From Verrucomicrobiota bacterium (GTDB lineage Bacteria > Verrucomicrobiota > Verrucomicrobiia > Limisphaerales > UBA11358): 64,000 nucleotides of DNA. The stretch is from the NCBI GenBank assembly GCA_049517655.1, contig JBEKRQ010000001.1, forward strand, positions 749,379-813,378. The letters run 5' to 3'. Shown here in pieces: positions 94 to 59,128 of this stretch. A model generated the notes under the pieces. The model ran no database searches and was not told the origin of the DNA. It worked only from the letters and a program-made list of their open reading frames with translations. The position numbers were made by a program, and so were the translations under genes. Position 1 is the stretch's first letter; the number at the start of each line of letters is the position of its first letter.

Positions 94-3000
94 TCAGGCT
101 CGCGTTACTAATTGCCGCAATACGCAAGGCAAAATGCCACCGTGCCGGTAGTAATCAATTTCAACCGGCGTATCGATGCGGCAACGGACCGTCACGTTTT
201 CCACTTTACCGTTTTTGCGCGTGATTTTAAGCGTGAGGTCCTGCTGCGGTTTCAGGTTCACGCCAAGGCCGACAACGTCATAGGTTTCAGTTCCGTCCAG
301 CTTCAATGCCCGTGCGGAAACGCCTTCCTTGAATTGCAACGGCAGCACGCCCATGCCGACAAGGTTGCTGCGGTGAATGCGTTCAAAACTCTGCGCGACA
401 ACAACTTTCACTCCGAGCAACGCCGTGCCTTTCGCCGCCCAATCGCGCGAGCTGCCCGCGCCGTATTCTTGGCCGGCAATCACAACCAGCGGCGTCCTGC
501 TCTTCGCGTATTCCATTGCTGCGTCGTAAATCGGCATTTTGTTTGGGAGGGACGGCGTGCCGCCGTCCCCGGATTTGGGACTGCAACATGCAGTCCCCCC
601 CATGAACAACGTATTTCCGCCTTCTTCACCGGCGAGCATGAGGTTCTTGATACGCACATTGGCGAACGTGCCGCGTGTCATCACGCGGTCGTTGCCGCGG
701 CGAGAGCCGTAGCTGTTGAAGTCCGCTGGCTGAACGCCGTGCTCAATCAGGTGCTTGCCGGCTGGTGAAGTTTCCTTGATGGAACCGGCGGGCGAAATGT
801 GGTCGGTCGTAATACTGTCACCGAAAATGGCCAGTGCCCGCGCGCCTTTGATTTCGCGGATTTCACCGGGCTTCATTGAGAAGTTCTCGAAGAACGGCGG
901 TTCCTGGATGTAAGTGGATTCGCGGTCCCATTCATAGACGTTGCCGGCGCTCGACTGAATTTCATTCCACTTTGGATTCTGCGCGACGAAATCCTTGTAA
1001 AGTTTGCGGAACACATCCGGTTGCAATGCGGCCTGCATGAGGTCGCAAATCTCGCGCTGGGTTGGCCAAAGGTCCTTCAGGTAAACCGCCGTGCCGTTTT
1101 TGTCTTTGCCAATCGGTTCATTGGCCATGTCAATGTCCACCCGCCCGGCGAGCGCGAACGCGACGACCAGCGGCGGCGACATGAGGAAATTCGCCTTGAT
1201 GCTCTGGTGGATGCGCGCCTCAAAGTTGCGGTTTCCAGACGATACCGAAGCGGCGATCAGATTGTGTTTATGAATCGCATCCTCAATCGGCGCGGCGAGC
1301 GGACCGGAATTACCGATGCATGTCGTGCAGCCATAACCGACGAGATTGAAACCGAGTTTGTCGAGATACGGCTGCAGCCCGGTCTTGTTCAAATAATCGG
1401 TGACGACGCGCGAACCGGGCGCAAGTGAAGCCTTCACGAGTGGATTCACACTGAGTCCGCGTTCGACCGCTTTTTTTGCAAGCAAGCCGGCGGCGAGCAT
1501 TACGCTGGGATTGCTTGTGTTCGTGCAACTCGTGATGGCGGCAATCAAAACCGAACCATTACGAATTTCGCCTTCCCCCGTCCGTACCGGAGTTGTGACC
1601 GAATCGGGTGTCGGACGATTGTTTGCCATTTCGAGTTCTGTGAACGGATTTGTGTTTTGCGATTTTGCGGCCTGCAATGAAACCGGTTCCTGACTGCCGC
1701 CACCGATCGCAGATTTGCCATTGGCGGAAACGGAAAATATTTTTGCCAAATCCCCAGGCGGTCTGCCAAAGCCATTTTCCGCCACGGATTTGCTGAATGC
1801 TGCGGCGAAATTTTCCTTCAGCTTCGGCAATTCAATTTTGTCCTGCGGGCGTTTCGGTCCGGCGACACTCGGCACGACAGCGCCGAGATCGAGTTCCAAT
1901 TCACGCGAATAGGCAATGTCGCCTTTTTTCGGAATGCCAAACAAGCCCTGCGCCTTGTAATAATTTTCGTAAAGCCTGCAATGTTCCACGCTACGGCCGG
2001 TGGCATGGAGATAATTCACGCACTCGGTGTCAATCGGGAAAAAGCCCATCGTCGCGCCGTATTCGGGCGCCATGTTGGCAATGGTCGCGCGGTCCACCAC
2101 CGGCAACGCCGCCGCGCCCGGCCCAAAAAATTCAACGAATTTGCCGACCACCTTCGCCTTGCGCAGCATTTGCGTGACGGTGAGCGCAAGGTCGGTGGCG
2201 GTAACGCCTTCACGCAACGAGCCGGTCAGGTGCACGCCGACGACATCCGGCGTGAGAAAATAAACCGGCTGGCCGAGCATTCCGGCTTCGGCTTCAATGC
2301 CCCCAACGCCCCAGCCCACGATGCCCAAGCCGTTGATCATCGTCGTGTGCGAATCCGTGCCGACAAGGGTGTCGGGATAAAAGAGTTGAGAGTTGTCGGT
2401 TGAGGGTTGAGCGAGCACGCCCTTGGCGAGGTATTCCAGATTGACCTGGTGGACGATGCCAATGCCGGGTGGAACGACTTTGAACGTGTCGAACGCCTGC
2501 ATGCCCCACTTGAGAAATTGGTAACGCTCGCGGTTGCGTTGGAATTCAATTTCGAGATTGCGTTGGAACGCGTCAGTCGTGCCGTTCACATCCACTTGCA
2601 CCGAATGATCAACCACGAGGTCCACCGGAACGAGTGGCTCGATGATTTTCGCGTTTTTGCCCAGCCGCTGCACCACCGAACGCATCGCCGCCAAATCCAC
2701 CAGTAATGGCACGCCGGTAAAGTCCTGCAGCACGATGCGCGCGACGATAAACGGAATTTCCTCTGTGCGGGTTTCGGTCGGCTTCCAGTTCGCCAGCGCG
2801 CGGACGTTTTGTTCAGTCACTTTTTTACCATCACAGTTCCGCAACACCGATTCGAGCACGAGGCGTATGGAGACCGGCAATTTGGAAATCGGCCCGATGC
2901 CGGCCTTTTCCAACGCGGGCAATGAATAAAACCGGCCGGGCTTCCCGCCGCCGGGATCAAATTCCTGAAGCGTGCCAAATAAATTATGCGGTGTGCTCAT
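94..3000 (-). CDS. acnA: aconitate hydratase A (AcnA/IRP type)
   Basis: 968-aa ORF with aconitase signatures [21 protein letters not shown] and [10 protein letters not shown]. Carries two repeat-derived in-frame inserts (549-597, 2385-2412). Confidence 0.95.
549..597. repeat. twin GGGAC...GTCCC hairpin module, in frame inside acnA
   Basis: gggacggcg-tgc-cgccgtccc (549-569) and gggactgca-aca-tgcagtccc (577-597). Encodes [19 protein letters not shown] in a loop that is about 16 aa shorter in E. coli AcnA as I recall it. Confidence 0.8.
2385..2412. repeat. heptamer array GTTGAGA-type (4 units) inside acnA
   Basis: gttgaga gttgtcg gttgagg gttgagc; encodes [10 protein letters not shown]. The same heptamer occurs in recJ. 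Confidence 0.8.
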
Positions 3001-3587: not shown

Positions 3588-4547
3588 TTGTATCTTTCGG
3601 CAACAATGCCAACACGCCAGGGTTCCATTCGTTTGTTCCGGCTTTTCGGAATTGATGTGTATCTGCACTGGTTGTGGTTTCTGGCCGTCGTGTATTTCGT
3701 CAACGAGGCAAAAGGTTACACTTCCCCAATCTGGAGCGTGCTGGAATGTCTGGCATTGTTCCTGATTGTGCTGATACACGAATTCGGCCATCAACTGGCC
3801 TGCCGTCAGGTGGGTGGAAAAACCAGTGATATCATCCTCTGGCCGCTTGGTGGCGTGGCTTACGTTTCTCCGCCGCAACGTCCCGGCGCGCAACTGTGGA
3901 GCATCGCCGCCGGGCCATTGGTTAACGTCATCCTGTTTCCTATTTTAAGCGCGCTGGCCCTGCTGGGCGGGCATTTGGGATGGGTGGATACCTCGTCCAA
4001 CTTGACCAAATTCCTGAACAACATCTGGTCCATCAATCTCGTTTTGCTGATTTTCAACATGCTGCCAATTTATCCGCTCGACGGCGGACAGATTTTGCGG
4101 TCACTGCTTTGGTTTGTGTTTGGGCGCGCCAATAGTCTTTTGGCGGTGAGCATCATCGGATTCATCGGAGTGGCGGTGCTGATCGGGATGGCAGTGTTGC
4201 TTCTATTTTTTTCGACAGAGCCGACTCAAGGCATCTGGCTCGGCATTCTGTGCGTCTTTATTTTGATGAATTGCTGGGGCGGTTTGATGCAGGCGCGTGC
4301 GCTGTCCAAAATCGCCAAAATACCCCGACGTGCTGGTTTTGCCTGTCCCAACTGCAAAACTCCGCCGCCGCAAGGCGCATTTTGGGTATGCGGCAAATGC
4401 CGGAAGCCTTTTGACACGTTCCAAACGCAGGGTGTTTGCCCGAATTGCGGAGTTCGGTATTCCGCAACGTCCTGCCCGGAATGCGGAAGCTTGCGGCCAT
4501 TCAATGAGTGGATTGCTTCCGGGAACGTTCCGCCGCTGATGCAATAA
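3588..4547 (+). CDS. M50 (site-2 protease family) zinc metallopeptidase with C-terminal zinc-ribbon tail
   Basis: HEFGH motif in a hydrophobic segment and a second M50 motif LPIYPLDGGQ. The tail has four CxxC pairs (CPNC, CGKC, CPNC, CPEC). The true start may be the Met at 3606. Confidence 0.8.
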   Translation: MYLSATMPTRQGSIRLFRLFGIDVYLHWLWFLAVVYFVNEAKGYTSPIWSVLECLALFLIVLIHEFGHQLACRQVGGKTSDIILWPLGGVAYVSPPQRPGAQLWSIAAGPLVNVILFPILSALALLGGHLGWVDTSSNLTKFLNNIWSINLVLLIFNMLPIYPLDGGQILRSLLWFVFGRANSLLAVSIIGFIGVAVLIGMAVLLLFFSTEPTQGIWLGILCVFILMNCWGGLMQARALSKIAKIPRRAGFACPNCKTPPPQGAFWVCGKCRKPFDTFQTQGVCPNCGVRYSATSCPECGSLRPFNEWIASGNVPPLMQ

Positions 4548-4583: not shown

Positions 4584-5339
4584 TCAATTGCCGGAATGAA
4601 TCGGATTCCCTATTGCGTCAACAATTGTCGGCGTAATCATTACAACAAGGAATTTTTTTCCTTTCTTCATTTCGGCTTGCGCGATGTGCCGCGTCAGGCG
4701 CTGATCTTGTTCCACATCAGCCTTTGGAAACAATACCAGTGTCTGACCATCATCCAAGGTGCTCTGCGCGGAGGCGCGATCCACTTGAAGAACCGGCAAA
4801 ATTATTGGAAGATTTACTTTTTCTCCGGCGGAATTTGTAGCGAAACGCGAAGGTAAACCTTCGGGATCGGCATAACCAAAAAATCTCACGAGTGACGCCG
4901 TGGTTTTCAGGCCAATTTTTTGACCGTCGCTCGAAATTGTTGGAATGACATCCAAAATCGGACCGCATTCTATTTTTTCTGATTGTGGAACAGCCGATGA
5001 ATTGCCTGAATTTTCCTGAAAGGTGAAATTGGTCACGACGGTTTGGATTTCTGTTGCGCGCATTTGAGTTTGACGACCACTGCTTGTTATCACTTCGGGC
5101 GCAGATAATGATTTCACGTCAGGGTTGGAACGAAGATTTTTAAGTGTCGAATTCATTTGTTCCGGCGTCAGCCGTTCCGTGCCGTCGCTCGCAACTGCAA
5201 AATTCTTTTGCAAAGTTTCCAGTGTCGTTCTTGGGACTTCAAAAAAACTGGCTTTGATGTGAATCTCCTGCGCCCCTGCTCCGGCAGCAAATGCAAGAAT
5301 TCCGACGGTCGCTATTAGTAATTTGACAAGTGTTTTCAT
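4584..5339 (-). CDS. short secreted secretin-domain protein (GspD/PilQ C-terminal-domain-like)
   Basis: Signal peptide MKTLVKLLIATVGILAFAAGAGA. Pattern SAPEVITSSGRQTQM ... GPILDVIPTISSDGQKIGL ... DDGQTLVL matches my memory of the secretin-domain consensus. Only 251 aa, with no N-domains. Confidence 0.5.
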   Translation of the reverse strand: MKTLVKLLIATVGILAFAAGAGAQEIHIKASFFEVPRTTLETLQKNFAVASDGTERLTPEQMNSTLKNLRSNPDVKSLSAPEVITSSGRQTQMRATEIQTVVTNFTFQENSGNSSAVPQSEKIECGPILDVIPTISSDGQKIGLKTTASLVRFFGYADPEGLPSRFATNSAGEKVNLPIILPVLQVDRASAQSTLDDGQTLVLFPKADVEQDQRLTRHIAQAEMKKGKKFLVVMITPTIVDAIGNPIHSGN

Positions 5340-5388
5340 GGAATTAAAGCCGTTATTGCATCAAATCAAAACGGCTGCAACCCTTTCT

Positions 5389-5868
5389 TTACTTCAACTT
5401 CGCCAGCGCCGCTTTGACGGCCTCGAAGTTTGGTAAATCCCTTGGAGTCGGCGTTTGTTCGCTGTATTGCACGACGCCATTTTTATCAATCACGAACGCC
5501 GCACGCGACGCCGTGTCACCCACACCCGCGAGCATCTGGGACACAACGTCATATTTTTTGATGACTTCCTTGTTCAAATCGCTGGCAAGCGTGACGCCGA
5601 TTCCTTCCTTTTCCGCCCATGCCTCTTGCGCAAATGGACTGTCCACACTCACGGCGATGACATCAGCGTCCAGACCGGCATACGCATTGAGGCCGGCAGT
5701 GGTATCGCACATTTCCTTGGTGCAAACGCTTGTGAACGCAAAGGGACAAAAAAGCAGGACGGTGTTCTTCTTGCCGAAGTTGTTGCTAAGTTTCACGTCC
5801 ACCAAACCGGAGATTTGTTTGGATTTGAGAATGAAATCAGGAGCCTTTGAGCCAACTGGAATTGCCAT
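5389..5868 (-). CDS. peroxiredoxin (AhpC/TSA-redoxin family), paralog 1
   Basis: 159 aa with thioredoxin-fold peroxidatic motif PFAFTSVCTKE. Tandem paralog of 6092..6571. Confidence 0.9.
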   Translation of the reverse strand: MAIPVGSKAPDFILKSKQISGLVDVKLSNNFGKKNTVLLFCPFAFTSVCTKEMCDTTAGLNAYAGLDADVIAVSVDSPFAQEAWAEKEGIGVTLASDLNKEVIKKYDVVSQMLAGVGDTASRAAFVIDKNGVVQYSEQTPTPRDLPNFEAVKAALAKLK

Positions 5869-6091
5869 AATTGTTTCTGTTTACTCAGTTCGTTTATTTC
5901 CGTCACAGCTAAATCTTCGGGATTTACAGCGCTCGTGTCAAATAAGGATTACATGCCGCGACAATCTTTATGCCCTTATCCGGCAGCTTTCGCAAAACCT
6001 CCGGTGGCACGGCGCAAAAAAAATCCCGGCCACCCGGCAAATCCGGATTCCAGCCGTGACGGGAGATTTTGCGAGCCTTATCCATTCTCCT

Positions 6092-6571
6092 CTACTTCAA
6101 CCTTACCAGCGCCGCTTTGATGGCGTTGAAATTCGGCAAATCCTTTGGTGTCGGCGTTTGTTCGCTGTATTGAACAATGCCGTTTTTATCAATGACGAAT
6201 GCCGCGCGCGACGCCGTGTCGCCCACGCCGGCCAGCATCGGAAACACGACGTCATATTTTTTGATGACTTCCTTGTTCAAATCGCTGGCGAGTGTGATGC
6301 CGATTTTCTCCTGTTTTGCCCACGCTTCCTGCGCGAATGGACTGTCCACGCTGATGCCAATGACGTCCGCATTCAACCCGGAATACACGTTCAGTCCGGC
6401 GGTGAGGTCGCACATTTCCTTCGTGCAAACGCTGGTGAACGCGAGCGGGAAGAAGAGCAGCACGGTGTTCTTTTTGCCGAAGTTGTTGCTGAGTTTTACA
6501 TTCACCAAGCCGGATGCCTGCTTGGATTTGAGGGTAAAATCAGGGGCCTTTGAGCCAATTGGAATTGCCAT
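6092..6571 (-). CDS. peroxiredoxin (AhpC/TSA-redoxin family), paralog 2
   Basis: 159 aa with motif PLAFTSVCTKE. About 24 differences over 159 aa versus paralog 1 by manual alignment. Confidence 0.9.
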   Translation of the reverse strand: MAIPIGSKAPDFTLKSKQASGLVNVKLSNNFGKKNTVLLFFPLAFTSVCTKEMCDLTAGLNVYSGLNADVIGISVDSPFAQEAWAKQEKIGITLASDLNKEVIKKYDVVFPMLAGVGDTASRAAFVIDKNGIVQYSEQTPTPKDLPNFNAIKAALVRLK

Positions 6572-7915: not shown

Positions 7916-9742
7916 ATGAGCACCAGCCCAAAACAAGGCGAGCTTGCGCCGTCTGATTTTATCCGCGACATCGTCGCCACTCATGTCGCCGAAAAAAAAT
8001 ATCCGCAGATTCACACCCGCTTTCCGCCGGAGCCGAACGGTTATCTCCATATCGGCCACGCCAAGAGCATTTGCCTGAACTTCGGCATCGCGCACGAGTT
8101 CGGCGGCATTTGCAACCTGCGTTATGACGACACGAATCCCGCCAAAGAGGAGGTCGAATACGTGGATTCCATTCTTGAGGATGTTCAGTGGCTGATTGCC
8201 GGCTGGGCTGACAACAAACTGGGCTTGAAGCCAAAAGGTAAAAGACCGGATACAATTACGAGCAACGGCAAGCTCGATTTTTATCTTCCTGCTGTTATCG
8301 GTAGGGCGGGCTCTCCGCAGCCCGCCGCAGAACGGCGCGATGAGACATCGCGCCCTACCATCGAGCCATTTTACGCTTCGGATTACTTCGACCAGATTTA
8401 CGAATACGCCGTGATGCTCGTCAAAAAGGGCAAGGCCTACGTCTGCGACCTGACACCGGACCAGACCGATGAATACCGCCGCCAAGCCAAGGAAAGCCCG
8501 TTCCGCAACCGGCCCGTCGCTGAAAACCTCGACCTCTTCACGCGCATGAAGAACGGCGAGTTTCCCGATGGCAAGCGTTCGCTCCGCGCGAAGATTGACG
8601 TCGCCTCGCCGAATATTTGGATGCGCGATCCCCTGCTCTATCGCATTCGGCACGCCGACCATCATCACACCGGCGGCAAATGGTGCATCTACCCGATGTA
8701 TGACTTCGCCCATTGCTTGAGCGATTACATCGAAGGCATCACGCACAGCATTTGCACGCTCGAGTTCGAGGTGCACCGCCCGCTTTACGATTGGATTCTG
8801 GAAAACCTCGATCTGCCGCGTCCGTTGCCCAAGCAATACGAATTCGCCCGCCTGAGCCTCGGATACACCGTGATGAGCAAACGCAAGCTCATGCAACTCG
8901 TGAACGAAAACCTCGTCACCGGCTGGGACGACCCGCGCATGCCGACCATTTGCGGCATCCGGCGACGCGGCGTCACGGCAGAAGCTCTGCGGGCGTTTGC
9001 CTACAACATCGGCATCACGAAATACAACGGTATCACCGACGTCGCCGTGCTCGAACACGCCATCCGCGAAGACCTGAACAAAATCGCGCTGCGTCGACTC
9101 GCCGTGTTGCGGCCTGTCAAAGTAGTCATCACCAATTATCCTGAAGGCAAAACCGAGGAACTGGATGCCGTCAACAATCCCGAGGACGAAAGTGCGGGCA
9201 AACGGAAGATTCCGTTCAGCCGCGAACTCTACATCGAACAAGACGATTTCAAGGAAGTTGCCGTGCCGAAATTTTTCCGGCTGAAACCCGGCGGCGAAGT
9301 CCGGCTCAAATACGCCTACATCATCAAATGCGACGAAGTGGTGAAGGACGCGAACGGAAAGATTGTGGAACTGCGCTGCACCGCCGACCTCGACAGCAAG
9401 ACCGGCGGCCCGACGGCAAATCGCAAAGTCAAAGGCACGATACATTGGGTGAGCGCCTCGCACGCTATTGACGCCGAAGTGCGCCTCTACGACCGGCTTT
9501 TCACCGAAGCCGAGCCGGAGAAGGACGGTCGCGACTTCAAATCCGTCCTCAACCCGCACAGCCTTGAAGTCGTGACGGCCAAATGCGAACCCGCCGTCGC
9601 TGAAGTTATGGCGGGCAGGCCGAGCGACGTGCGTTACCAATTCGAGCGTTTGGGATATTTTGCGTTGGACAAAGACAGCGCGCCCGGCAAATTGGTTTTC
9701 ACTCGGACGATTGCTTTGAAAGATACTTGGGCAAAAAAATAA
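7916..9742 (+). CDS. glnS: glutamine--tRNA ligase
   Basis: Class I motifs HIGH (LHIGHAKS) and KMSKS variant (VMSKR). Colinear with E. coli GlnRS as I recall it, except for a ~45-aa insert containing the repeat at 8300-8359. Confidence 0.95.
8300..8359. repeat. family-A palindromic element (GGTAGGGCG...CGCCCTACC), 60 bp, in frame inside glnS
   Basis: Terminal 9-bp inverted repeats. The first 28 nt are identical to the reverse complement of the right end of the hypF copy (56904-56931). Encodes [20 protein letters not shown]. Confidence 0.9.
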
Positions 9743-11243: not shown

Positions 11244-11286
11244 CTGACGACTCCTCCAAATAATTTGTGCTGACCCGTTGAGCGTG
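11244..11286. repeat. R-repeat copy a (CTGACGACTC...TTTGTSCTGACCCGTTGAGCG)
   Basis: Aligns by eye with copies at 11480-11538 and 12806-12860. It is the most diverged copy. Confidence 0.7.
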
Positions 11287-11304
11287 CTGTCCCAAAGGGA
11301 CCCC

Positions 11305-11479: not shown

Positions 11480-11538
11480 CTGACGACTCATTTTTGAAAG
11501 AATTTGTCCTGACTCGTTGAGCGCGTTGCCGGAGTTGC
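11480..11538. repeat. R-repeat copy b
   Basis: ctgacgactcatttttgaaagaatttgtcctgactcgttgagcgcgttgccggagttgc, lying 3' of the GH10 gene. Confidence 0.85.
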
Positions 11539-12805: not shown

Positions 12806-12860
12806 CTGACGACTCCTTCAAAGAATTTGTCCTGACCCGTTGAGCGCGTTGTGGAGTTGC
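12806..12860. repeat. R-repeat copy c
   Basis: ctgacgactccttcaaagaatttgtcctgacccgttgagcgcgttgtggagttgc. Same orientation as copy b, lying 5' of the GH10 gene. Confidence 0.85.
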
Positions 12861-17444: not shown

Positions 17445-18296
17445 TTACGTGCTCGCGCTGGTGTAACGGCGGATGGAGAAGCGCCAGAACCATTCGGAAA
17501 TGAGCGCCCAAATAACACCCAAGCCGAACAGCGCCGACAAAGCGGCGGGCGATGTCAATTTGTCCGCCAGCACGCGCACGGGCACGTTGGACACCAGCAA
17601 CACCGGCAAGGCGAAGGTGAACACGGCCTTGAACACGCCGCGAAACGCTTCATCCGGCATCCGCGCGATGTTGAACAGATTGTAGTAGCCCCACACGATG
17701 CCTTGCGCGCGCACGGTCCAAAAACTCACCGAGGCAAGCATGAACATGAGCGAGTAATGCACCAAAAGCCCGACAACGCACAAAGCGGCAAAGACGAGCA
17801 ACTGCGCGGTGGTTGGGTGCAAATGTAATTTCCCTGCCGCAAAAACCATGACGCACACGGCGAACGCGGCGTTGGCAAATGACGGCAGGTCCACCTGTCG
17901 CATTGAAACGAGGAAACGCGTGTTGACCGGCAGCAGCAGCAGGAAATCCATTTTGCCCGTGCGGACGAGTTCGGAGAGGTTCGTGCAGTTCACGAGAAAG
18001 AACGCCTGGTAAATTTCCTGGATAAAATTGCTCGTGCCGGTGAGTAGCACCACCTGCCACACCGTCCACGTGCCGACGGTGCTGGTTTGACTGAAAAGAA
18101 CGCCGACAAAGGCGAGTTGCAGTCCGAACCACAGCAATTCGACGACAATCCAAAGAATAAAGTTGCCCTTGAACGACATTTCGCGCGTCACGGAAGTTTT
18201 CCACAACGCAGCGTAAATGGTGAGATAACGAGCGACGCCGGATACGAGTTGCGTGACGCCCGTTTCTGCCTTCTGTCTTCTGCCTTCTGCCTTCAT
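17445..18296 (-). CDS. ABC-2 type transporter permease (PF06182-like), second of pair
   Basis: Multi-TM protein typical of ABC-2 family permeases. Start moved to MKAEGRR, immediately after the stop of the upstream permease. The first codons are encoded by the heptamer array 18264-18294. Confidence 0.6.
   Translation of the reverse strand: MKAEGRRQKAETGVTQLVSGVARYLTIYAALWKTSVTREMSFKGNFILWIVVELLWFGLQLAFVGVLFSQTSTVGTWTVWQVVLLTGTSNFIQEIYQAFFLVNCTNLSELVRTGKMDFLLLLPVNTRFLVSMRQVDLPSFANAAFAVCVMVFAAGKLHLHPTTAQLLVFAALCVVGLLVHYSLMFMLASVSFWTVRAQGIVWGYYNLFNIARMPDEAFRGVFKAVFTFALPVLLVSNVPVRVLADKLTSPAALSALFGLGVIWALISEWFWRFSIRRYTSAST
18264..18294. repeat. heptamer array TTCTGCC x4
   Basis: ttctgcc ttctgtc ttctgcc ttctgcc at the junction of the two ABC-2 permease genes. 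Encodes MKAEGRRQKAE. Confidence 0.85.
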
Positions 18297-18300
18297 TTCA

Positions 18301-19110
18301 TCATCCTCCAAACGCGGCGTATTTCTTAATGCCGCGCCGCCACGCAAATCGCGCAAGCGCATAACCAATCAACACCCAACCCGCTTGCACAAACATTCCA
18401 CGCAGCAAATCCGCACCCGCAATTTCGCCAGTGTAAATGCCGATGGGGAAATAAAGCATATACGGAAACGGCGTGAAGAAGAGCGCGTGTTCCAGCGCGG
18501 GACTTATAGTATGCAATAGGGGGAGTGGAAATAGATGGCCGCTGGCGATGTATTCGAACGCGAACAAAATGAAAATGAACGTGGAAATTTCCAGCACCCA
18601 AAACGCGAGCATCGCCATCGCGTAGGAAATGAAAAATTGCAACAGCGCCGTCAGCACCAGCGAAATCAGGAAGGCCGCCAGCGCCAAGCCGTCCGGCGGG
18701 AAAATAAAATAACCGCGCAAACAAAAAACGAAAATCGCCAGCGGCACGACGGCCACGGTCATATACGCGACGCGCCCGGAAAAAAACAGGCACAGCCGAT
18801 ACCATAAATAATCAATCGGCTTGAGCAGGAACTGGCTGATGTTGCCTTCGCGAATGTCGGCGGCGATCTGCCAGTCGTCCTCGTTTACCGCCGTGAGCAC
18901 GTCCACAACGGCGACAAGCAGATAATAGGAAATCATTCCCGACAGGGTGTAACCGGAAATTGTCGCGCCCTTCGCCGCGTAAATGGTGCGCCAGAGCGAC
19001 AGCATGGCGAACAGCGGGATGAAGCTGAACAGCGTTCGCGTCAGGTAATTGAAGCGATACGTCAGGTTGTTTTGAATCCCGATGCCGATGACATGCCAGT
19101 ATTTTTTCAT
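18301..19110 (-). CDS. ABC-2 type transporter permease (PF06182-like), first of pair
   Basis: Multi-TM protein with N-terminus MKKYWHVIGIGIQNNLTYRFNYLTR. Start moved inside ORF 18301..19170. There is no cognate ATPase gene upstream. Confidence 0.6.
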   Translation of the reverse strand: MKKYWHVIGIGIQNNLTYRFNYLTRTLFSFIPLFAMLSLWRTIYAAKGATISGYTLSGMISYYLLVAVVDVLTAVNEDDWQIAADIREGNISQFLLKPIDYLWYRLCLFFSGRVAYMTVAVVPLAIFVFCLRGYFIFPPDGLALAAFLISLVLTALLQFFISYAMAMLAFWVLEISTFIFILFAFEYIASGHLFPLPLLHTISPALEHALFFTPFPYMLYFPIGIYTGEIAGADLLRGMFVQAGWVLIGYALARFAWRRGIKKYAAFGG

Positions 19111-19112
19111 TC
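18980..19112. repeat. 133-bp direct repeat, copy 1 (5' end of the ABC-2 permease gene)
   Basis: Three mismatches versus 21663-21795 by manual alignment. Weaker similarity continues for ~30 bp beyond. Confidence 0.9.
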
Positions 19113-21665: not shown

Positions 21666-21793
21666 ATCGTGCGCCAGAGCGACAGCATGGCGAACAGCGG
21701 GATGAAACCGAACAGCGTTCGCGTCAGGTAATTGAAGCGATACGTCAGGTTGTTTTGAATCCCGATGCCGATGACATGCCAGTATTTTTTCAT
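21641..21793 (-). pseudogene. 5' fragment of the ABC-2 permease gene (duplicate of 18980-19112)
   Basis: Encodes MKKYWHVIGIGIQNNLTYRFNYLTRTLFGFIPLFAMLSLWRTIY, then runs antisense into the end of the propeller gene and stops after 50 codons. Confidence 0.7.
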
Positions 21794-21795
21794 TC
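21663..21795. repeat. 133-bp direct repeat, copy 2
   Basis: Begins exactly at the stop codon of the beta-propeller gene and includes a duplicated permease start codon. Confidence 0.9.
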
Positions 21796-24117: not shown

Positions 24118-24190
24118 GGTAGGGACATCCTGCCGGGATGTCCGCCACGGTCGCCCCGGCGGTGCGTTTCTACAAAGACGTCAGCCCTAC
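24118..24190. repeat. family-A variant directly 3' of glgP
   Basis: ggtagggac...cagccctac ends with an internal hairpin ggacatcc-tgcc-gggatgtcc. Confidence 0.7.
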
Positions 24191-28682: not shown

Positions 28683-28690
28683 GGGAACCA

Positions 28691-28725
28691 GTCTAAAGTC
28701 CAAAGTCCAAAGTCCAAAGTCTAAA
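28691..28725. repeat. heptamer array GTCCAAA x5
   Basis: gtctaaa gtccaaa gtccaaa gtccaaa gtctaaa, with the complementary cagactttggac at 28749-28760. Lies in the recJ-ispD spacer and abuts the ispD start. Confidence 0.9.
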
Positions 28726-34596: not shown

Positions 34597-36423
34597 CTAT
34601 TTTAAAGTTTCAACTTTAGCTTCCGGCTCGACCCACTTGTTATGTTCCTTGATAAGGTCAACGAGTCGTTCCACAGCTTCGGCTTCGGGGATGTTGAACT
34701 TGATCGCCTGCTTGCCGACGTAAAGGTTGATCTTGCCGGGCGCGCCGCCAACGTATCCGAAGTCGGCATCTGCCATTTCACCCGGGCCGTTCACGATGCA
34801 GCCCATGATGGCGATTTTAACACCCTTGAGATGCTCCGTCCGAGCCTTGATGCGAGCCATCACGGTCTGCAAGTTGAACAGCGTCCGCCCGCACGACGGG
34901 CACACCACGTAATCGGTCTTGAACGAACGGCAGCCCGCTGCCTGCAAAATATTGTAAGCCAGCCGCAGCGATTGTCCGCTGTCGGACTCCCCGCGAATCA
35001 AAATCGCATCGCCAATGCCGTCCGCCAGCAGCGAACCGATTACAACGGACGCGCGCAGCAAGACGATTTTGGGTTCCAGTGGCACAGACCTCTGGTCTGT
35101 GTTCGCCCTTTCATTCACAGGCTGGAAGCCTGTGCCACATAAACAATCCTTGAGTAGAATCGGATTGTTGCGACCAAGTCTCTTCAATTTCGCCACGAGC
35201 AGACGGAATGCAGTAATCGCGGGTAAATTCACACCATCTTTTACAGTCACGAGTTGCGTGTCACTGTTAATGTTGAAATCCTTTGTTGGGTCGAGTTCCG
35301 CAACATTCAAGTCTTCATAGACTGCCTCCGGTTTCACGTCGTCCCTCAGGCGAATCTTCGGAGTAACCTTGTCCCACGTGGCGCGAGTGACGACGACGCG
35401 GATGAGCTGTTCGCCGCCGCACTTGAAATTTTCGCTTGGAGAAATTCCCGGCGTTTTGCGACGCTCGAAGTGGAAGGGGTCGAACGGAAATTCCGAATTC
35501 GGAATTCGGAATTCGGAATTCGACAGTTTGGGAATTTGCGCCAGCAAATCGCGGCAGACCTCGACTTCGCGCGGCGAATCTTCCGTGAGTGAAACTCGGA
35601 TCGTGTCGCCCAACCCGTCGCACAGCAACGAGCCGATGCCGATGGCGGATTTGATGCGGCCGTCCTCGCCCCCGCCCGCCTCGGTCACACCCAGGTGGAT
35701 CGGATAATTCCAGTCCGGCCCTTCCTGTTCCAGCCGCGCGACGAGCAGCCGATAACATTCGATCATCACCTTGGGATTGCTCGCTTTCATCGAGAATTTG
35801 AAGTTGTGGAAATCGTGCATGCGGCAGATGCGGGCGAATTCCAACGCGCTCTCGACCATGCCAAGCGGCGTATCACCGTAACGGTTCATGATGCGGTCGG
35901 AAAGCGAGCCGTGGTTCGTGCCGATGCGCAACGCGCGCTTCAGGCGTTTGCACTCGATGACCAGAGGCGTGAATTTTTCCTCAATGCGCTTTAATTCGGC
36001 GGCGTATTGCCCATCGGTGTATTCCTTGCCGGCAAATTTCTTGGAATCGGCGTAGTTGCCCGGATTGACACGCACGACTTCGACCCATTTCACCGCTTCC
36101 ATCGCCGCCTCCGGTTTGAAATGGATGTCGGCGACGATAGGCACGTTGCAGCCGCGCTTGCGAAGCCCGGCGACAATGTTTTTGAGATTCGCCGCGTCTT
36201 TGACTGTCGGCGCGGTGATGCGGACGATCTGGCAGCCGACGGCGACGAGGTCGAGCGTTTGTTTCACGCACCCGGCGGTGTCCATCGTGTCGCATGTAAT
36301 CATGGACTGTATGACGACCGGATGGTCGCCACCAATGACGATGCCGCCGCGCGCCGGATCGCCGATGACAATTTCGCGGCTCTTCCGCCGCTGATGAAAA
36401 AATGGTGATTCGCAGTAGCGCAT
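34597..36423 (-). CDS. ispG: 4-hydroxy-3-methylbut-2-en-1-yl diphosphate synthase (long-form IspG/GcpE)
   Basis: TIM-barrel N-terminus (VIQSMITCDT) and C-terminal Fe-S motifs CPSCGRT and GCIVNGPGE. Start moved to MRYCESPFF directly after the rseP stop. Two repeat inserts (35079-35138, 35486-35521). Confidence 0.9.
   Translation of the reverse strand: MRYCESPFFHQRRKSREIVIGDPARGGIVIGGDHPVVIQSMITCDTMDTAGCVKQTLDLVAVGCQIVRITAPTVKDAANLKNIVAGLRKRGCNVPIVADIHFKPEAAMEAVKWVEVVRVNPGNYADSKKFAGKEYTDGQYAAELKRIEEKFTPLVIECKRLKRALRIGTNHGSLSDRIMNRYGDTPLGMVESALEFARICRMHDFHNFKFSMKASNPKVMIECYRLLVARLEQEGPDWNYPIHLGVTEAGGGEDGRIKSAIGIGSLLCDGLGDTIRVSLTEDSPREVEVCRDLLAQIPKLSNSEFRIPNSEFPFDPFHFERRKTPGISPSENFKCGGEQLIRVVVTRATWDKVTPKIRLRDDVKPEAVYEDLNVAELDPTKDFNINSDTQLVTVKDGVNLPAITAFRLLVAKLKRLGRNNPILLKDCLCGTGFQPVNERANTDQRSVPLEPKIVLLRASVVIGSLLADGIGDAILIRGESDSGQSLRLAYNILQAAGCRSFKTDYVVCPSCGRTLFNLQTVMARIKARTEHLKGVKIAIMGCIVNGPGEMADADFGYVGGAPGKINLYVGKQAIKFNIPEAEAVERLVDLIKEHNKWVEPEAKVETLK
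35079..35138. repeat. family-C double-hairpin element, 60 bp, in frame inside ispG
   Basis: The reverse complement aligns along its whole length with 12915-12969. Encodes GTGFQPVNERANTDQRSVPL. Confidence 0.9.
35486..35521. repeat. heptamer array GGAATTC x4-5 inside ispG
   Basis: ggaaattc cgaattc ggaattc ggaattc ggaattc, each unit carrying GAATTC. Encodes SNSEFRIPNSEFPF. Confidence 0.9.
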
Positions 36424-36427
36424 GAAA

Positions 36428-37813
36428 TTATCTGGCCGGCACCGGTACAGTTTCTGCGGGTGGCTGGGTTGTTTGTTCGATTTGCACGTTGTTATTGAAC
36501 ATCGCTCGGAACAGTGGAATCCGTTTGATGTCAAAGAACGAGACATAGAGCATGAACGAAATCACGAGCACCGCGAAGCAGGTCGTGGTGTATTCGACGA
36601 ACCTGATGTCCAAAGGCCGGCGGCGGATTTTTTCGATGATTGCCATCAAAATGTGGCCGCCGTCGAGCACGGGAACCGGCAGCAAATTGATAATTGCAAG
36701 GTTGATGTTGAGCAACACAAGAAAACTCAAGGCGAGGCGATAGTCCGCGTTCACATACACGGCAAGAATCGAAAGGATGCCCAATGGGCCGCTCAAATCG
36801 CTCGCTTTCACGCCTGTCTGCCGCGTATGAATGAGGGCCGAGATAACTCCGAAGGTTTGTTTTGTGACTTCCTGAATCTGGACCCACGGCAAAGGACCGG
36901 GCTTTTTCACCTCGTAGACACCTTCACTGAAAACGACGCCGATGCGGGCACGCTCGTTGACCGGGTCGTATTGCGGCGTTACGGTCGTGCTCCTTTTTTC
37001 ATTCTGACGGTTGAACACGATTATACACGGTTTGCCTTCGGATTTGGAAATGACCTCGATCATCCGGTCTCTGCTGGGGACCGGGATTCCATTTACCGAC
37101 AGGATTTTATCGCCACTCATCAAACCAGCCGCCGCTGCGGGCATGCCACTTTCGACGGCACCGACGACTGGATGCTCACGTGGATCGAGATCCAGCCACT
37201 TGCCACCCGCGGGGTTCGCCTTGGCCGTCAGATAGTAGGTTTTCTGTTCACCACTCCGTTTGATGACTACGGGAAAGACATTGGTCTTGGCCGTCATCGT
37301 CTCGAATACAACATCCTGCCAGGATTCCACCGCATGCCCGTTGACTATCACGATACGGTCGCCTTCCGTGATCCCAAGTTTTCCTTCCGGCGAATTCGGA
37401 TTGACTTCGCCAATCACCGACGGGTTTACCAATATGGGCAATCCGACAAAATAAATCACCGTGGCAATGGCGAAGGCGAACACGACGTTCATGAACGGTC
37501 CGGCAAAAGCAACAAGTATTTTGCGCAACGGAGGCGCAGGCGGGACCTTTTCGGTGGACTGACCTTCCAGCGCTTCGGAGGTAATCATTTGCGGCAGCTT
37601 CACAAAACCGCCGGCGGGAATCCAACGCAGCGAATATTCGACGCCGTTGCGCTTCCGACTGCAAATTTTTGGGCCAAACCCGACGGCAAATTCGTCCACT
37701 TTCATTCCCAGCCGGCGCGCGACCCAAAAATGGCCAAACTCATGGACAAAAATGGCCGCGCCAAACAACGCCAACACGGCGGCAATCACGTAAATGATGT
37801 TTAAAATGGTCAT
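36428..37813 (-). CDS. rseP: RIP zinc metalloprotease RseP (M50 with PDZ)
   Basis: Motifs HEFGHF and NLLPVPVLDGGH with PDZ segments between them. Start moved to MTILNIIYV. Confidence 0.9.
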   Translation of the reverse strand: MTILNIIYVIAAVLALFGAAIFVHEFGHFWVARRLGMKVDEFAVGFGPKICSRKRNGVEYSLRWIPAGGFVKLPQMITSEALEGQSTEKVPPAPPLRKILVAFAGPFMNVVFAFAIATVIYFVGLPILVNPSVIGEVNPNSPEGKLGITEGDRIVIVNGHAVESWQDVVFETMTAKTNVFPVVIKRSGEQKTYYLTAKANPAGGKWLDLDPREHPVVGAVESGMPAAAAGLMSGDKILSVNGIPVPSRDRMIEVISKSEGKPCIIVFNRQNEKRSTTVTPQYDPVNERARIGVVFSEGVYEVKKPGPLPWVQIQEVTKQTFGVISALIHTRQTGVKASDLSGPLGILSILAVYVNADYRLALSFLVLLNINLAIINLLPVPVLDGGHILMAIIEKIRRRPLDIRFVEYTTTCFAVLVISFMLYVSFFDIKRIPLFRAMFNNNVQIEQTTQPPAETVPVPAR

Positions 37814-50225: not shown

Positions 50226-50280
50226 GGTAGGGCGCGATGTCCCCATCGCGCCGCGGCGGGCTGAGACAGCCCCCCCTACC
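50226..50280. repeat. family-A element in the PFOR / DHOD-like spacer
   Basis: ggtagggcgcgatgtccccatcgcgccg...cccccctacc. The first 27 nt match the copy at 59047 with one mismatch. Confidence 0.85.
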
Positions 50281-55947: not shown

Positions 55948-58488
55948 TTACTCCTTCCTCCGCAAGGCAGCAACGACTTGTCCCAGTGCAATCCCGCCGT
56001 CGTTCGGCGGCACGCGCTGATGCCAATAGGGTCGAAAACCCTCCGCCAGCAAACGCCGCACCGCGCGCTCCGTCAAATAACGATTCTGAAAACAACCACC
56101 GGAAAGCACAACCCGGTTTTGGCCGACGCGTTTTGCAATGGCGATAATGGCCTCGACCAATGCGTTGTGAAATTTTGCGGAAATTTTGCCGACCGAAACA
56201 CCACGCTTAACATCCGCCAAAATGGCTTCAATCATCGGCGACCAATCCAAAATAATTGCGGATTGCGGACCCCGGCTTTGCCGGAGGCTTCGCCGAGGCG
56301 AGTTGTGGATTGCGAATTGGCTGCTAATCCGCAATTCATAAGCTTCCTCGGTTTCAACGCCCTCCAGCGCGAATTCCAGTTCCATCGCCGCCTGACCTTC
56401 AAATCGGATGTGCTGACGAAGATTGGTGAGTGAAGCGACGGCGTCGAAAAGCCGGCCCACACTGGAACAAAGCGGCGAATTCAATTTTTTGGCCAGCATT
56501 GTTTTCAGCGTGGTCATTTCTGCTGCCGAAAAAGCGGTGATTGTTGCCAGTTTTTCCTGTTTAAAAACTTTGTCGCCGGAAATTTCGTAAAGCAGTCCGA
56601 GCGCGGTTCGGCGCGGTTCCTTCACGGCCTTGTCGCCGCCCGGCAGATGGAACGGACGCAAATGCGCGACGCGTTCGATGTTGTTATCGGTGACGATAAA
56701 AAATTCGCCGCCCCAAATCGTGCCGTCCAAACCGTAACCTGTTCCGTCCCACGACACGCCGAGCATGGGCGGCGCGATTTCATTTTCGGCCATGCAGGAC
56801 AGGACGTGGGCGATGTGATGCTGGACGCCGACGTGGCACACTGTGGTGGGGTGCGATGCTCGCCTGGGCGAAGCCTCGCGAAGACCGGTCCCTATCGCGT
56901 CGTCGGCGGGCTGCGGAGAGCCCGCCCTACCTGTCATTTCATTGGCATACTTTGTCGAGAGATAATCCGGATGCAAATCGGCGGCAATGATTTGCGGCTC
57001 GGCCTCGTAAAGCTTTTCGAAATCCGCGATGACATGGCGGAAGGCGGCGTGCGCCTGTTCGGTTTCCAAATCACCGATGTGCTGGCTGATGAAAACCTGA
57101 TTACCGACAGAAAGCGCCACGGTGTTTTTTAAATGAGCGCCAACGGCCAATACAATTGCGGATTGCGGATTGCGGATTGCGGATTTCAGAGTTTTGGTGG
57201 GGCGAGCGTCCCCGCGAGCCGCATTCCGCATTCTGCATTCCACATTCTGCATTTGAATGGGCAGCGGTGCATAACCGCGGGCGCGGCGCAAAACCAATTC
57301 GCGGTCGAGCATCACGCGCACAACCGAATCGTCCACATGCCGGACAATGGGGCGGTTGTGGACCAAAAATAAATCCGCGATGCCGCCGAGACGCTCCAAG
57401 GCTTCATGTTCATCCGTGCAAATCGGCTCATCACTCAGGTTGCCGCTTGTGGCGATGACAGGAAAACCGAGTTCGGTCATCAACAGATGATGCAACGGCG
57501 TGTAAGGCAGCATCACGCCGAGATTAGGATTGCCGGGAGCCACCGAATTTACGATTTGCGATTTGCGATTTGCGATTTTCTTGAGCAGGACGATGGGTGC
57601 TTCGGATGAGTGCAACAGTCGCTTTTCCAAAGGCGAGACTTTGCATTCCACCTTGATGACCTTCAATGAAGGAAACATCAGCGCGAACGGTCTTTCTTCG
57701 CGATGTTTCCGCTCGCGTAAAAGTCGAACTGCTTTGTCGTTGCGGGTATCCGTCATCAGGTGAAACCCGCCGAGTCCCTTGACTGCGACGATTTGTCCCT
57801 GTCGGATGGCTTCGGCAGCAGCGAGCAAAGCGTCGGCATTCTGGAGTGCGCGGACATGTCCGCGCTTTGAAAGCGGCGACACGTCGCCGCATTCCCACAA
57901 TTCCAAATGCGGGCCGCAGACCGGACACGCATTTGGCTGCGCGTGAAAACGGCGGTCGCGCGGGTCATCGTATTCAGCCTGACATTGCGGACACATCGTG
58001 AACTTGCGCATCGAAGTGTTCGCGCGGTCGTAAGGCAGGGATTCAATGATGCTGAAGCGCGGGCCGCAATGGGTGCAATTGGTGAATGGATAACGGTAAC
58101 GACGATTGGCAGGATCAAAAACTTCGTGTAGACAATCCGGACAAGCGGCAATGTCCGGCAAAATCAGCGCGGTTTTGCCGCCGCCGGTTTGACTTTCGCG
58201 GATTTCAAATTTCTTGTAACCGGCGGCGTCAAGCCACGAGCTTTCGAGGCTTTGGATGAAACTGCGCGGCGGTTTCTCGGTGTCGAGACGGAGAAAAAAT
58301 TGTTCGAGCGCGGCGCGCGGACCTTCAACTTCGATGAAAACGCCTTGCGAAGAATTATTGACCCATCCGGAAAGGTGGAGTTCGGCGGCGAGGCGGAAGA
58401 CGAACGGGCGAAAGCCGACGCCCTGCACCGCGCCGCGAACGGAAAGTTTCAGGCGCGTGCATCGGCTGGTTTGGCTGGCTTTGTTCAC
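55948..58488 (-). CDS. hypF: carbamoyltransferase HypF
   Basis: Acylphosphatase domain (VRGAVQGVGFRPFV), two zinc-finger pairs (CPDC..CTHCGPR, CPQC..CPVCGP), and YrdC and Kae1-like domains. 846 aa, including about 100 aa of repeat-derived inserts. Confidence 0.95.
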   Translation of the reverse strand: MNKASQTSRCTRLKLSVRGAVQGVGFRPFVFRLAAELHLSGWVNNSSQGVFIEVEGPRAALEQFFLRLDTEKPPRSFIQSLESSWLDAAGYKKFEIRESQTGGGKTALILPDIAACPDCLHEVFDPANRRYRYPFTNCTHCGPRFSIIESLPYDRANTSMRKFTMCPQCQAEYDDPRDRRFHAQPNACPVCGPHLELWECGDVSPLSKRGHVRALQNADALLAAAEAIRQGQIVAVKGLGGFHLMTDTRNDKAVRLLRERKHREERPFALMFPSLKVIKVECKVSPLEKRLLHSSEAPIVLLKKIANRKSQIVNSVAPGNPNLGVMLPYTPLHHLLMTELGFPVIATSGNLSDEPICTDEHEALERLGGIADLFLVHNRPIVRHVDDSVVRVMLDRELVLRRARGYAPLPIQMQNVECRMRNAARGDARPTKTLKSAIRNPQSAIVLAVGAHLKNTVALSVGNQVFISQHIGDLETEQAHAAFRHVIADFEKLYEAEPQIIAADLHPDYLSTKYANEMTGRAGSPQPADDAIGTGLREASPRRASHPTTVCHVGVQHHIAHVLSCMAENEIAPPMLGVSWDGTGYGLDGTIWGGEFFIVTDNNIERVAHLRPFHLPGGDKAVKEPRRTALGLLYEISGDKVFKQEKLATITAFSAAEMTTLKTMLAKKLNSPLCSSVGRLFDAVASLTNLRQHIRFEGQAAMELEFALEGVETEEAYELRISSQFAIHNSPRRSLRQSRGPQSAIILDWSPMIEAILADVKRGVSVGKISAKFHNALVEAIIAIAKRVGQNRVVLSGGCFQNRYLTERAVRRLLAEGFRPYWHQRVPPNDGGIALGQVVAALRRKE
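56254..56336. repeat. ATTGCGG-type inverted-repeat element inside hypF
   Basis: aattgcggatt (56254-56264) pairs with aatccgcaatt (56326-56336). The core shares ctcgcctNggcgaagcctc with 56858-56878. Encodes ...SSQFAIHNSPRRSLRQSRGPQSAII.... Confidence 0.85.
56845..56931. repeat. family-A element, 87 bp, in frame inside hypF
   Basis: ggtggggtg...cccgccctacc. The reverse complement starts with the same 28 nt as the glnS copy. Encodes [29 protein letters not shown]. Confidence 0.9.
57154..57187. repeat. heptamer array ATTGCGG x4 inside hypF
   Basis: attgcgg units at 57155, 57162, 57169 and 57176. Confidence 0.9.
57196..57220. repeat. family-A half element inside hypF
   Basis: ggtggggcgagcgtccccgcgagcc, matching the left ends of 13434 and 55572. 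Confidence 0.75.
57221..57255. repeat. heptamer array GCATTCY x5 inside hypF
   Basis: gcattcc gcattct gcattcc acattct gcatttg. Confidence 0.85.
57553..57580. repeat. heptamer array GATTTGC x4 inside hypF
   Basis: gatttgc x3 plus gattttc. Encodes KIANRKSQIV. Confidence 0.9.
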
Positions 58489-59046: not shown

Positions 59047-59128
59047 GGTAGGGCGCGATGTCCCTATCGCGCCGTGGCTGGCCGCCGGTTTTCGCACGAG
59101 CGGCGCGCTGGGGACAGCGCGCCCTACC
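59047..59128. repeat. family-A element in the hoxH-hoxW spacer
   Basis: ggtagggcgcgatgtccctatcgcgccg...gggacagcgcgccctacc. Confidence 0.9.

Follow-up and report, generated by a model that had tools for sequence, protein, structure and literature searches.

We analyzed a 64,000-nucleotide stretch of DNA (the window) from a bacterium of the Verrucomicrobiota (GenBank assembly GCA_049517655.1, contig JBEKRQ010000001.1, positions 749,379 to 813,378). Our subject is a 60-bp repeat that lies in frame inside the gene for glutaminyl-tRNA synthetase (GlnRS), an enzyme that we identified by homology and by comparison with solved GlnRS structures. The repeat is a doublet of repetitive extragenic palindromes (REPs), similar to the inverted REP pairs known as REPINs, and related bacteria carry other repeats at the same position. 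The main features of the locus are as follows.

7916..9742, plus strand: glnS, glutaminyl-tRNA synthetase, 608 amino acids
8213..8371, plus strand: clade-specific insertion of about 50 residues in GlnRS (residues ~100-152), with a conserved part and a hypervariable, repeat-encoded loop
8300..8359, plus strand: REP doublet (REPIN-like), 60 bp, in frame in glnS, encoding residues 129-148
8300..8326, plus strand: left REP, with tag G-GTAG, stem GGCGGGCT (8305-8312), loop CTCCGC, and stem AGCCCGCC (8319-8326)
8327..8333, plus strand: 7-nt spacer between the REPs, GCAGAAC, as delimited by the fold
8334..8359, minus strand: right REP, inverted, which reads G-GTAG-GGCGCGATG-tct-CATCGCGCC on the minus strand

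The glnS element and its copies in the window

The sequence of the element is GGTAGGGCGGGCTCTCCGCAGCCCGCCGCAGAACGGCGCGATGAGACATCGCGCCCTACC, and its termini are GGTAGGGCG and CGCCCTACC. As a previous reading of this DNA from its letters alone (the sequence-only reading) had claimed, this is a 60-bp element with inverted termini that sits in frame within glnS and contributes 20 codons. It is free of stop codons in the enzyme's frame. The 9-mer GGTAGGGCG occurs 6 times in the window, as compared to 0.18 occurrences expected, and none of 100 shuffles reached 6. These sites (8300+, 8351-, 50226+, 56923-, 59047+, and 59120-) make up three inverted pairs (8300/8351, 50226, whose partner is degenerate, and 59047/59120) and one end in hypF. 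Furthermore, an exact 28-nt match between glnS and hypF, which had also been noticed before, does recur at 56904-56931 on the minus strand, where it yields the same peptide (GRAGSPQPA); 0 such matches are expected. Three spacers had been proposed to contain copies, and two of them do (50226 and 59047). The third, at 24118, is a single different hairpin (GGTAGGGAC...GGGATGTCC) that matches 7 of the 9 bases of the left terminus and has no right terminus. This leaves three other members of the family in the window.

50226..50280, plus strand: 55-bp intergenic doublet, flanked by a gene for pyruvate:ferredoxin oxidoreductase and a DHODH-like gene
59047..59128, plus strand: 82-bp doublet, in the gap between an open reading frame (ORF) at 58586-59029 and the NiFe-hydrogenase large-subunit gene
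56845..56931, minus strand: longer variant of 87 bp in hypF, in frame and encoding 29 residues, with a degenerate far terminus (GGTGGGGTG)

The insert in glnS is real: an assembly artifact is ruled out because nine other near-identical GlnRS sequences share the identical insert (there are 2-5 substitutions among the eight that are full-length, and one is on 59 contigs). We also scanned representative genomes for exact or near-exact matches to a 26-mer from the left half of the element. The exact 26-mer is in 18 stretches, which are too few for an estimate of copy number or for locating the cognate RayT transposase. All 18 are from metagenome-assembled genomes (MAGs); 17 are titled as Verrucomicrobia or close relatives, and none is from the Rickettsiales. 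About 7 of these stretches lie within long ORFs, and the six translations that we have are in the GRAGSPQPA frame (GAGSPQPA in the glnS copy of L012). At its gathering thresholds, Rfam has no family that matches the element, and its sole match in the window is the tRNA at 40125.

Folded as single-stranded DNA, the element is predicted to form a Y shape at -22.5 kcal/mol (z = -4.18). A terminal 5-bp stem (GGTAG/CTACC) pairs 8300-8304 with 8355-8359 and closes two hairpins, whose stems are 8 and 9 bp; the right hairpin is GGCGCGATG-aga-CATCGCGCC. Both hairpins carry a GTAG head on their respective strands, so that the element reads GTAG...CTAC with the heads pointing outward; its terminal repeat measures 9-10 bp. 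The two halves differ in their stems, which makes the element a heterodimer, and the spacer differs in those copies of the family that are outside of glnS.

Similar hairpins abound nearby. If we scan for GTAG or GTGG with a stem of 7 bp or more behind it, then there are 19 in the window, as compared to 2-9 in Markov controls. They belong to REP families of the types GTAGGGCG (the family of the glnS element), GTGGCACAG, GTAGCGGCG, and GGTGGGGCGAGC. A doublet of the GTAGCGGCG type, at 39981-40047, is directly upstream of the tRNA gene (40125-40197). Among half-sites with the GGTAGGGC head, which is invariant across 10 half-site variants, the stems covary: 92% of cells are paired, 5 of 9 pairs are compensatory, and the covariation score is 0.50, versus 0.16 in shuffles (0 of 500 shuffles reach it).

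Occupants of the same site in relatives

The element lies within a larger insertion. The sequence-only reading had counted about 45 extra residues relative to E. coli GlnRS; the excess is real, but it is about 50 residues, of which 20 come from the element. E. coli GlnRS passes from residue 95 to residue 98 where this protein has residues ~100-152, and the distance from TNPxKE to YASDYF is 73 residues here versus 22-24 residues in 44 of 46 diverse GlnRS. The conserved part of the insertion (8213-8299 and 8360-8371, or residues ~100-128 and 149-152, ending in ...EPF) is specific to the clade and is absent from those 44.

To place the insertion in the enzyme, we used an AlphaFold2 model that was built from an alignment of diverse GlnRS. 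(With close orthologs only, the mean predicted local distance difference test score, or pLDDT, was 40, and that model was discarded.) Its mean pLDDT is 92.9, and a Foldseek comparison to E. coli GlnRS-tRNA complexes, 4jxz included, gave a target-normalized TM-score of 0.95 at 2.5-2.6 Å. The solved GlnRS lack the insert. The conserved part of the insertion is modeled as three short strands in a three-stranded meander (block pLDDT of 82-89 for residues 101-130), and the repeat-encoded residues 129-148 are mostly in blocks with a pLDDT of 59 (131-140) or 72 (141-150). By this model, the element is in a loop where the acceptor-binding domain adjoins the first Rossmann half, and the loop is probably disordered. 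In sequence, the insertion is distant from the HIGH and MSK motifs, which are at residues 45-48 and 320-322, respectively. The loop placement that had been suggested for the element therefore agrees with the model, in which a low-confidence loop interrupts an otherwise confident structure.

We then compared the 120 best GlnRS hits, which are 80-100% identical; the named relatives are MAGs from Verrucomicrobiota, Verrucomicrobiia, and Limisphaerales. The alignment of these orthologs is solid up to DFYLPAV and again downstream of the site, and the 10-45 residues in between differ in kind. At the same site we found at least 8 repeat families or 7-nt tandem arrays, in about 16 classes of occupant, and the site was never empty. 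The insert is hypervariable among close orthologs and absent from distant GlnRS, which confirms that it is repeat DNA and not an ancient protein domain. As peptides, the occupants include VGRAGSPLPADGAHGVTRPT; VGQASRLSPS...DRQDACPT; SAGVSPA...SRDGCAT; VAQTSGLC...EHRPEACAT; AAVPAAA...APETGAL; SGILPE...ADKMSAAR; and VAAGFSLRR...NLKVAAT. There are also short ones, such as SELRTPNSG, SEIGNRKSEM, and TLDSRPSTG. Short occupants of the heptamer type are present in 39 of the 120 orthologs (we read one of these, L004, as DNA), and in a distant relative the site holds PAVVGSHAAPVEPF alone. VAQTSGLC...EHRPEACAT is the exact translation of the window's GTGGCACAG...CTGTGCCAC doublets (12915 and 35079), and this family is identified in glnS solely by that peptide match; similarly, the AAVPAAA family is known by its peptide alone.

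Ten orthologous loci were read as DNA. In nine of these purE is directly upstream of glnS, and in L026 one gene lies between them. Their occupants are as follows.

L001, L023, L024, and L025: the family of the glnS element
L002 and L026: GTAGGACAGGCgtccCGCCTGTC ... GACAGGCaagaTGCCTGTCCTAC, with tags GTAGGACAGGC...CTAC
L003: GTAGCGCAGGCGTCTCGCCTGC ... GCAGCCGGGACGGCTGCGCTAC, with tags GTAGCGCAGGC...CTAC
L028: GTAGCCGCAGGCtttaGCCTGCGGC ... GCCGCAACCtgaaGGTTGCGGCTAC, with tags GTAGCCGCAGGC...GGCTAC
L027: a two-hairpin doublet with CGTAC/GGCACG ends
L004: the tandem array (TCCGAAC)4, with no GTAG-tagged doublet

All of the GTAG families have the same 3' junction, which is CTAC, one base, and then the LEPF codons, and the 5' junction shifts by 0-4 codons. 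At the glnS loci that we read as DNA, the tag is always read as xGT-AGx or GTA-Gxx and never in the frame that gives a TAG stop.

How quickly does the occupant change? Pairs of orthologs with at least 97% identity outside of the insert had the same class of occupant in 9 of 9 cases. At 93-97% identity, this fell to 18 of 78 pairs, and below 93% it was 11-14% (21% in a small bin of pairs below 84%); the chance level, as estimated from the class frequencies, is about 0.13. The occupant is fixed within the species (above 99% identity), is nearly random at 93-97% GlnRS identity, and is at chance below that. For example, P0035 and P0088 have GlnRS that are 97.3% identical, yet the right half of the occupant is different. 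Other close pairs with unlike occupants are P0087/P0115 (96.2%) and P0071 versus P0108, P0115, P0087, P0084, P0114, or P0104 (94.4-95.6%). A Fitch count on a neighbor-joining tree gave 62 changes versus 70 with permuted labels, but this is a weak test because the tree is star-like, and the bins of pairwise identity are firmer. Vertical descent of each type of occupant is not supported either: hosts that share subtype A1 have 88.0% identity among themselves, versus 87.8% with all other hosts. It had been suggested that the insertion could be dated by aligning orthologs. The orthologs do align, but there is no single insertion to date, as all 120 sites are occupied and the families differ. The site does not hold one old insertion; a new occupant takes over in less time than GlnRS needs to diverge by about 5%.

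In genomes that do share the family, the DNA of the element is hardly changed. The window's copy matches that of L023 at 60 of 60 positions; other pairs among the window, L023, L024, and L025 match at 58-59 of 60, and these match L001 at 54-55 of 60, for an overall identity of 90-100%. The glnS genes of the same genomes are 82-85% identical, or 64-71% identical at third codon positions. In particular, L023 and the window agree at all 20 third codon positions of the element, while their genes agree at 66% of third positions, so selection is not on the peptide. We considered whether a segment of glnS was imported by homologous recombination and rejected this, as the codons that touch the element have diverged like the rest of the gene. 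The sequence-only reading had viewed the element as selfish palindromic DNA that is tolerated in a surface loop. This view is incomplete: the element's DNA is far more conserved than its host gene, which would not be expected for junk that is tolerated passively. The L001 copy has decayed, with uncompensated mismatches in its stems and a GTGG head, and in its MAG nothing else matches the left half. One stem pair differs at both of its positions between L002 and L026, G:C having become T:A, which is a compensatory change. Finally, no consistent target-site duplication was seen: only in this genome does the copy lie between ATC and ATC, and L023-L025 lack this.

Repeat-occupied variable sites are general in this genome and its clade. 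HypF has six sites at which lineages carry different repeat-derived peptides. Five of the six are filled here, and four were confirmed as DNA, with hairpins that are tagged with GTAG or GTGG. The HypF ORF (55948-58488, minus strand) encodes 846 amino acids here and 789-953 amino acids in 120 orthologs. At its GRAGSPQPA site (56845-56931), which is hypervariable among orthologs, relatives carry other families. IspG has both kinds of occupant, as its gene also contains a heptamer array, and the doublet family of ispG fills the glnS site in other genomes.

Near 56305; 56845-56931; 57155-57253; 57547-57578; 57869-57898: variable sites of hypF in the window
35079..35138, minus strand: doublet GTGGCACAG...CTGTGCCAC from a second family, which lies in the reading frame of ispG/gcpE (34597-36546) and encodes LCGTGFQPVNERANTDQRSVPLE (a further doublet of this family is at 12915)
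35489-35522, in ispG/gcpE (minus strand): separate in-frame heptamer array, AATTCGG x4.9, read as SNSEFRIPNSEF

Similarly, the aconitase gene of L003 contains, at 3868-3927, the same GTAGCGCAGGC doublet family as does glnS of L003. Positions 5912-5933 of L002 are also in an aconitase gene, and aconitase varies from 951 to 992 amino acids among four relatives, with several indel blocks. Heptanucleotide arrays of 4-5 copies are scattered across coding regions of the window (2382-2411, 18264-18294, 28690-28725, 35489-35522, 57155-57185, 57219-57253, and 57547-57578). At 57155-57253, inverted arrays of ATTGCGG and CCGCATT surround a GTGG-tagged hairpin. As the period is 7, slippage by a single unit in an essential ORF would shift the frame.

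Comparison with known repeats

The GTAG and CGTC superfamilies of REPs were defined by Di Nocera, De Gregorio & Rocco 2013 (PMC3733652). GTAG/CTAC termini are the hallmark of REPs of the type that is associated with RAYTs, or REP-associated tyrosine transposases, and dimers of GTAG-type REPs, or REPINs, have a conserved GTAG head and a variable, covarying hairpin in inverted pairs (PMC3733652; PMC3116915). Intragenic GTAG REPs are most numerous in a verrucomicrobium, Opitutus terrae. More than half of the units inside genes occur as dimers or in groups, which encode 20-30 residues, and some are in genes for aminoacyl-tRNA synthetases (PMC3733652). The glnS element is like the intragenic GTAG dimers of O. 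terrae in many ways: they are from the same phylum, they combine a GTAG head with a 6-9-bp stem in opposite orientations, they lie in frame in enzymes, there are several families per genome, and some have GTGG instead (PMC3733652). But the synthetase genes that host REPs in that study are from other species, and here the host is glnS in a different bacterial order. The sequence family differs as well, as O. terrae has peptides such as VGPALAAG and GTGVPPV, among others, and the supplements of PMC3733652 contain no match to GRAG. Intragenic GTAG REP dimers were already catalogued in 2013, and the glnS element is a further case and not a new kind of repeat. What does appear to go beyond prior description is the scale and the speed of replacement at one codon-level site of an essential gene, its recurrence in other genes, and the hyper-conservation of the DNA relative to a diverged host. 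Different REPs at about the same site were described for a single case, recB of two species of Xanthomonas (PMC3733652), whereas here one site was traced through 120 orthologs, with at least 8 families and a measured turnover. In full-text searches, we did not find a paper that describes this replacement of families or a hot spot for it, which is not proof that there is none.

Like REPIN-RAYT systems (Bertels & Rainey 2011, PMC3116915; Nunvar et al. 2010, PMC2817692; Messing et al. 2012, PMC3479197), the glnS element consists of inverted REPs with a short spacer and with GTAG beside the hairpin. Also, the relatives have RayT genes flanked by cognate REPs, and the sequence of the element is conserved over long evolutionary times. 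Unlike those systems, the element has a Y shape with unequal stems, has few exact copies, and is intragenic and presumably translated. Extragenic location is a feature of REPs and REPINs that the glnS and hypF copies do not share, while the copies at 50226 and 59047 are between ORFs; this feature is not strictly defining because intragenic members have been documented (PMC3733652).

The transposases themselves can be found in relatives. L024, which has the same element in its GlnRS, encodes a RayT of 166 amino acids at 5045-5545, which is 1 kb downstream of glnS. This protein is similar to E. coli RayT (tblastn E = 2e-9), contains the HxH and WQPGF/Y motifs, and has thousands of homologs, several of which are named "REP element-mobilizing transposase RayT." Positions 4900-5640 of L024 form a complete REPtron, in which RayT lies between clusters of GTAGCGTTGAGCC and GTAGTGTCGAGC hairpins on both sides. 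More broadly, 79 of 80 metagenomic homologs of RayT have GTAG hairpins within 400 nt, and the sequence of the stem is clade-specific. One clade of RayT (about 52% identity; L061-L066, L068, L074, and L077) is flanked by GTAG(A/G)GGCGCGTGTCCTCACGCGC and GTAGAGGCGGCTGTCCCCAGCCGC, a flank that can also be given as GTAG(A/G)GGCGCGTG...CACGCGC, and this is close to the family of the glnS element. As RayT genes in relatives are flanked by GTAG REPs, REP-RayT systems of this architecture do exist in the clade.

The glnS element can also be compared to miniature inverted-repeat transposable elements (MITEs). MITEs such as Correia/NEMIS, ERIC, and Nezha have terminal inverted repeats of 15-30 bp and target-site duplications that DDE transposases make. 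The element is like a MITE in being short, non-autonomous, and hairpin-forming, and some copies of MITEs overlap ORFs. But its terminal repeat is just 9-10 bp, it has no consistent duplication, and its flanks vary among genomes that have the same element.

How occupants might be replaced

We estimate a probability of roughly 75% that the glnS element is a pair of REP hairpins with GTAG tags, non-autonomous, at a hot spot that is always occupied and that exchanges its occupants. The element would be transcribed and translated along with the enzyme, as a tolerated loop of 20 residues, and in an essential gene, only those copies that keep the frame and avoid the TAG stop would survive. The occupant would then be exchanged among the REP families and heptamer arrays that are present in each genome. 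This might happen by either of two routes. RayT-type transposases, which are of the Y1 (HUH) class, may cut and rejoin hairpinned single-stranded DNA at the GTAG/CTAC tags, or the hairpins may drive template switching or gene conversion from other copies. Both the mobilization by RayT and the mode of replacement are what we infer. A host function for the hairpins is not needed, and it fits the heptamer-only alleles poorly. We suggest more tentatively, and would not bet on it at even odds, that conserved proteins of this verrucomicrobial order have landing pads that are fixed and never empty. GlnRS would have one of these, HypF six, and IspG and aconitase further ones, and unrelated REP doublets and heptamer arrays would be swapped there like cassettes within less than 5% of protein divergence, while the DNA of each occupant stays nearly invariant from genome to genome.

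Several observations weigh against this explanation. The exact left half is present just once or twice per representative genome, while classical REPs have hundreds of copies. As the two halves have different stems, the element does not fold into one long hairpin, as a textbook REPIN does. There is no RayT gene in the 64-kb window, as judged by tblastn with the E. coli RayT and with the RayT of L024. The latter scores 22 bits against Pfam's Y1_Tnp, which is 1 bit under the gathering cut-off of 23, and it is flanked by a REP family other than that of the glnS element, so it cannot be assigned as the cognate transposase. The exposure of the insert at the surface of GlnRS, which was part of the original proposal of a surface loop, is suggested by low pLDDT rather than by solvent accessibility, and that the 20 residues are translated with GlnRS is likewise suggested by the frame and by the avoidance of stop codons. 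Finally, REP transposition at these sites is a process that we infer; to our knowledge, it has never been shown experimentally anywhere.

The most serious competitor is replacement without any transposase, which we consider possible, if distinctly the poorer bet. Under this scenario, replication stalls at the palindrome already in place, and the nascent strand moves to another copy of a REP as its template, or else gene conversion occurs, and the occupant would be overwritten by whichever family the genome has in abundance. This could account for the fixed 3' junction with its 5' counterpart drifting by 0-4 codons, for the composite occupants of some orthologs, such as P0015, P0090, and P0067, for the 28-mer that glnS and hypF of one genome have in common, and for the presence of family-S doublets in both the glnS and the aconitase gene of L003. 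On the other hand, the families share little besides GTAG/CTAC, which is very short homology for conversion. Furthermore, in the MAG MFD03044.bin.1.108, the glnS copy is the sole match to the left half, with no visible donor, and REPs are replaced by heptamer arrays too. Another proposal, that the hairpins persist at this site owing to some service that they render the host, strikes us as unlikely. For instance, they might cause a translational pause at a domain boundary, stabilize the mRNA, or bind a protein, in which case any strong pair of GTAG hairpins would serve. It would explain why none of the 120 orthologs has an empty site, why the element's DNA is much more conserved than the synonymous sites of its host gene, why compensatory changes maintain the pairing of the stems, and why the site falls where the Rossmann half meets the acceptor-binding domain. 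It would not explain why 39 of the 120 orthologs have short heptamer arrays only (in L004, where the DNA was read, there is no GTAG-tagged doublet), why distant GlnRS lack the entire insertion and a distant relative has just PAVVGSHAAPVEPF, or why six sites in hypF turn over in the same way without an apparent common functional logic.

The other alternatives are much less probable. The sequence-only reading had compared the element to the Rickettsia palindromic elements (RPEs), and the pattern is indeed similar, as RPEs are palindromic repeats that lie in frame within essential genes and are thought to be tolerated in loops (Ogata et al. 2000; PMC3733652). Membership in the RPE families is another matter and is highly improbable. 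The termini here are GTAG/CTAC, whereas RPE-4 and RPE-6 are of the CGTC class and RPE-1 is much longer (PMC3733652). The length, the sequence, and the phylum differ as well (the tags of RPEs are taken from PMC3733652, and no RPE consensus was aligned directly), and, as mentioned above, none of the 18 stretches with the exact half-element is from the Rickettsiales. Also, RPEs are not known to be replaced by other families at the same codon. It is about as improbable that the insert is removed or skipped, whether by RNA processing, by ribosomal bypass, or by protein splicing. There is a precedent, in that ribosomes bypass GC-rich palindromes in yeast mitochondria. But all of the sequenced occupants keep the frame and avoid the TAG frame, which would be needless if the segment were removed, and there are no signatures of inteins or introns and no Rfam match. 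The least credible idea is that this is an ordinary linker of low complexity that evolves quickly and resembles repeats by coincidence. A loop of variable length is what such a linker would look like, but not a loop with an exact 28-nt match in an unrelated gene (0 expected), with the same tags and hairpins in intergenic DNA, with 20 of 20 third codon positions identical in a gene where 66% are, and with a fold at z = -4.2.

REPs and REPINs are among the commonest repeats in bacteria, and neither their means of movement nor their standing as parasites or partners of the host has been settled. An always-occupied site in an essential single-copy gene would be a clean comparative system for these questions: metagenomes offer hundreds of alleles in which to read the junctions, the divergence of glnS gives a scale for dating replacement, and the constraint of the frame shows which insertions are viable. 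If RayT does the swapping at the GTAG/CTAC tags, then these sites are a natural record of the junctions of REPIN excision and insertion, a process that, as far as we know, has never been observed directly. More practically, the inserts inflate and diversify conserved enzymes of Verrucomicrobia. They also give rise to spurious "hypothetical" ORFs, and they may mislead alignments, phylogenies, and the annotation of domains.

The window contains other repeats as well. A conserved motif of ~47 nt (CTGACGACTCCTCCAAAGAATTTGTCC.GACCCGTTGAGCGCGTTG) is present in three copies within 1.6 kb (11244-11290, 11483-11529, and 12806-12852), and a further copy is in L024 at ~4836-4885, just upstream of the RayT REPtron; Rfam, at its gathering thresholds, has no family that matches this motif. 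There is also a direct repeat of 133 nt with 98% identity (18980-19112 and 21663-21795, 2.7 kb apart). Last, a repeat of 300 nt with 82% identity (5387-5686 and 6090-6389) corresponds to tandem paralogs of peroxiredoxin (AhpC/Redoxin).

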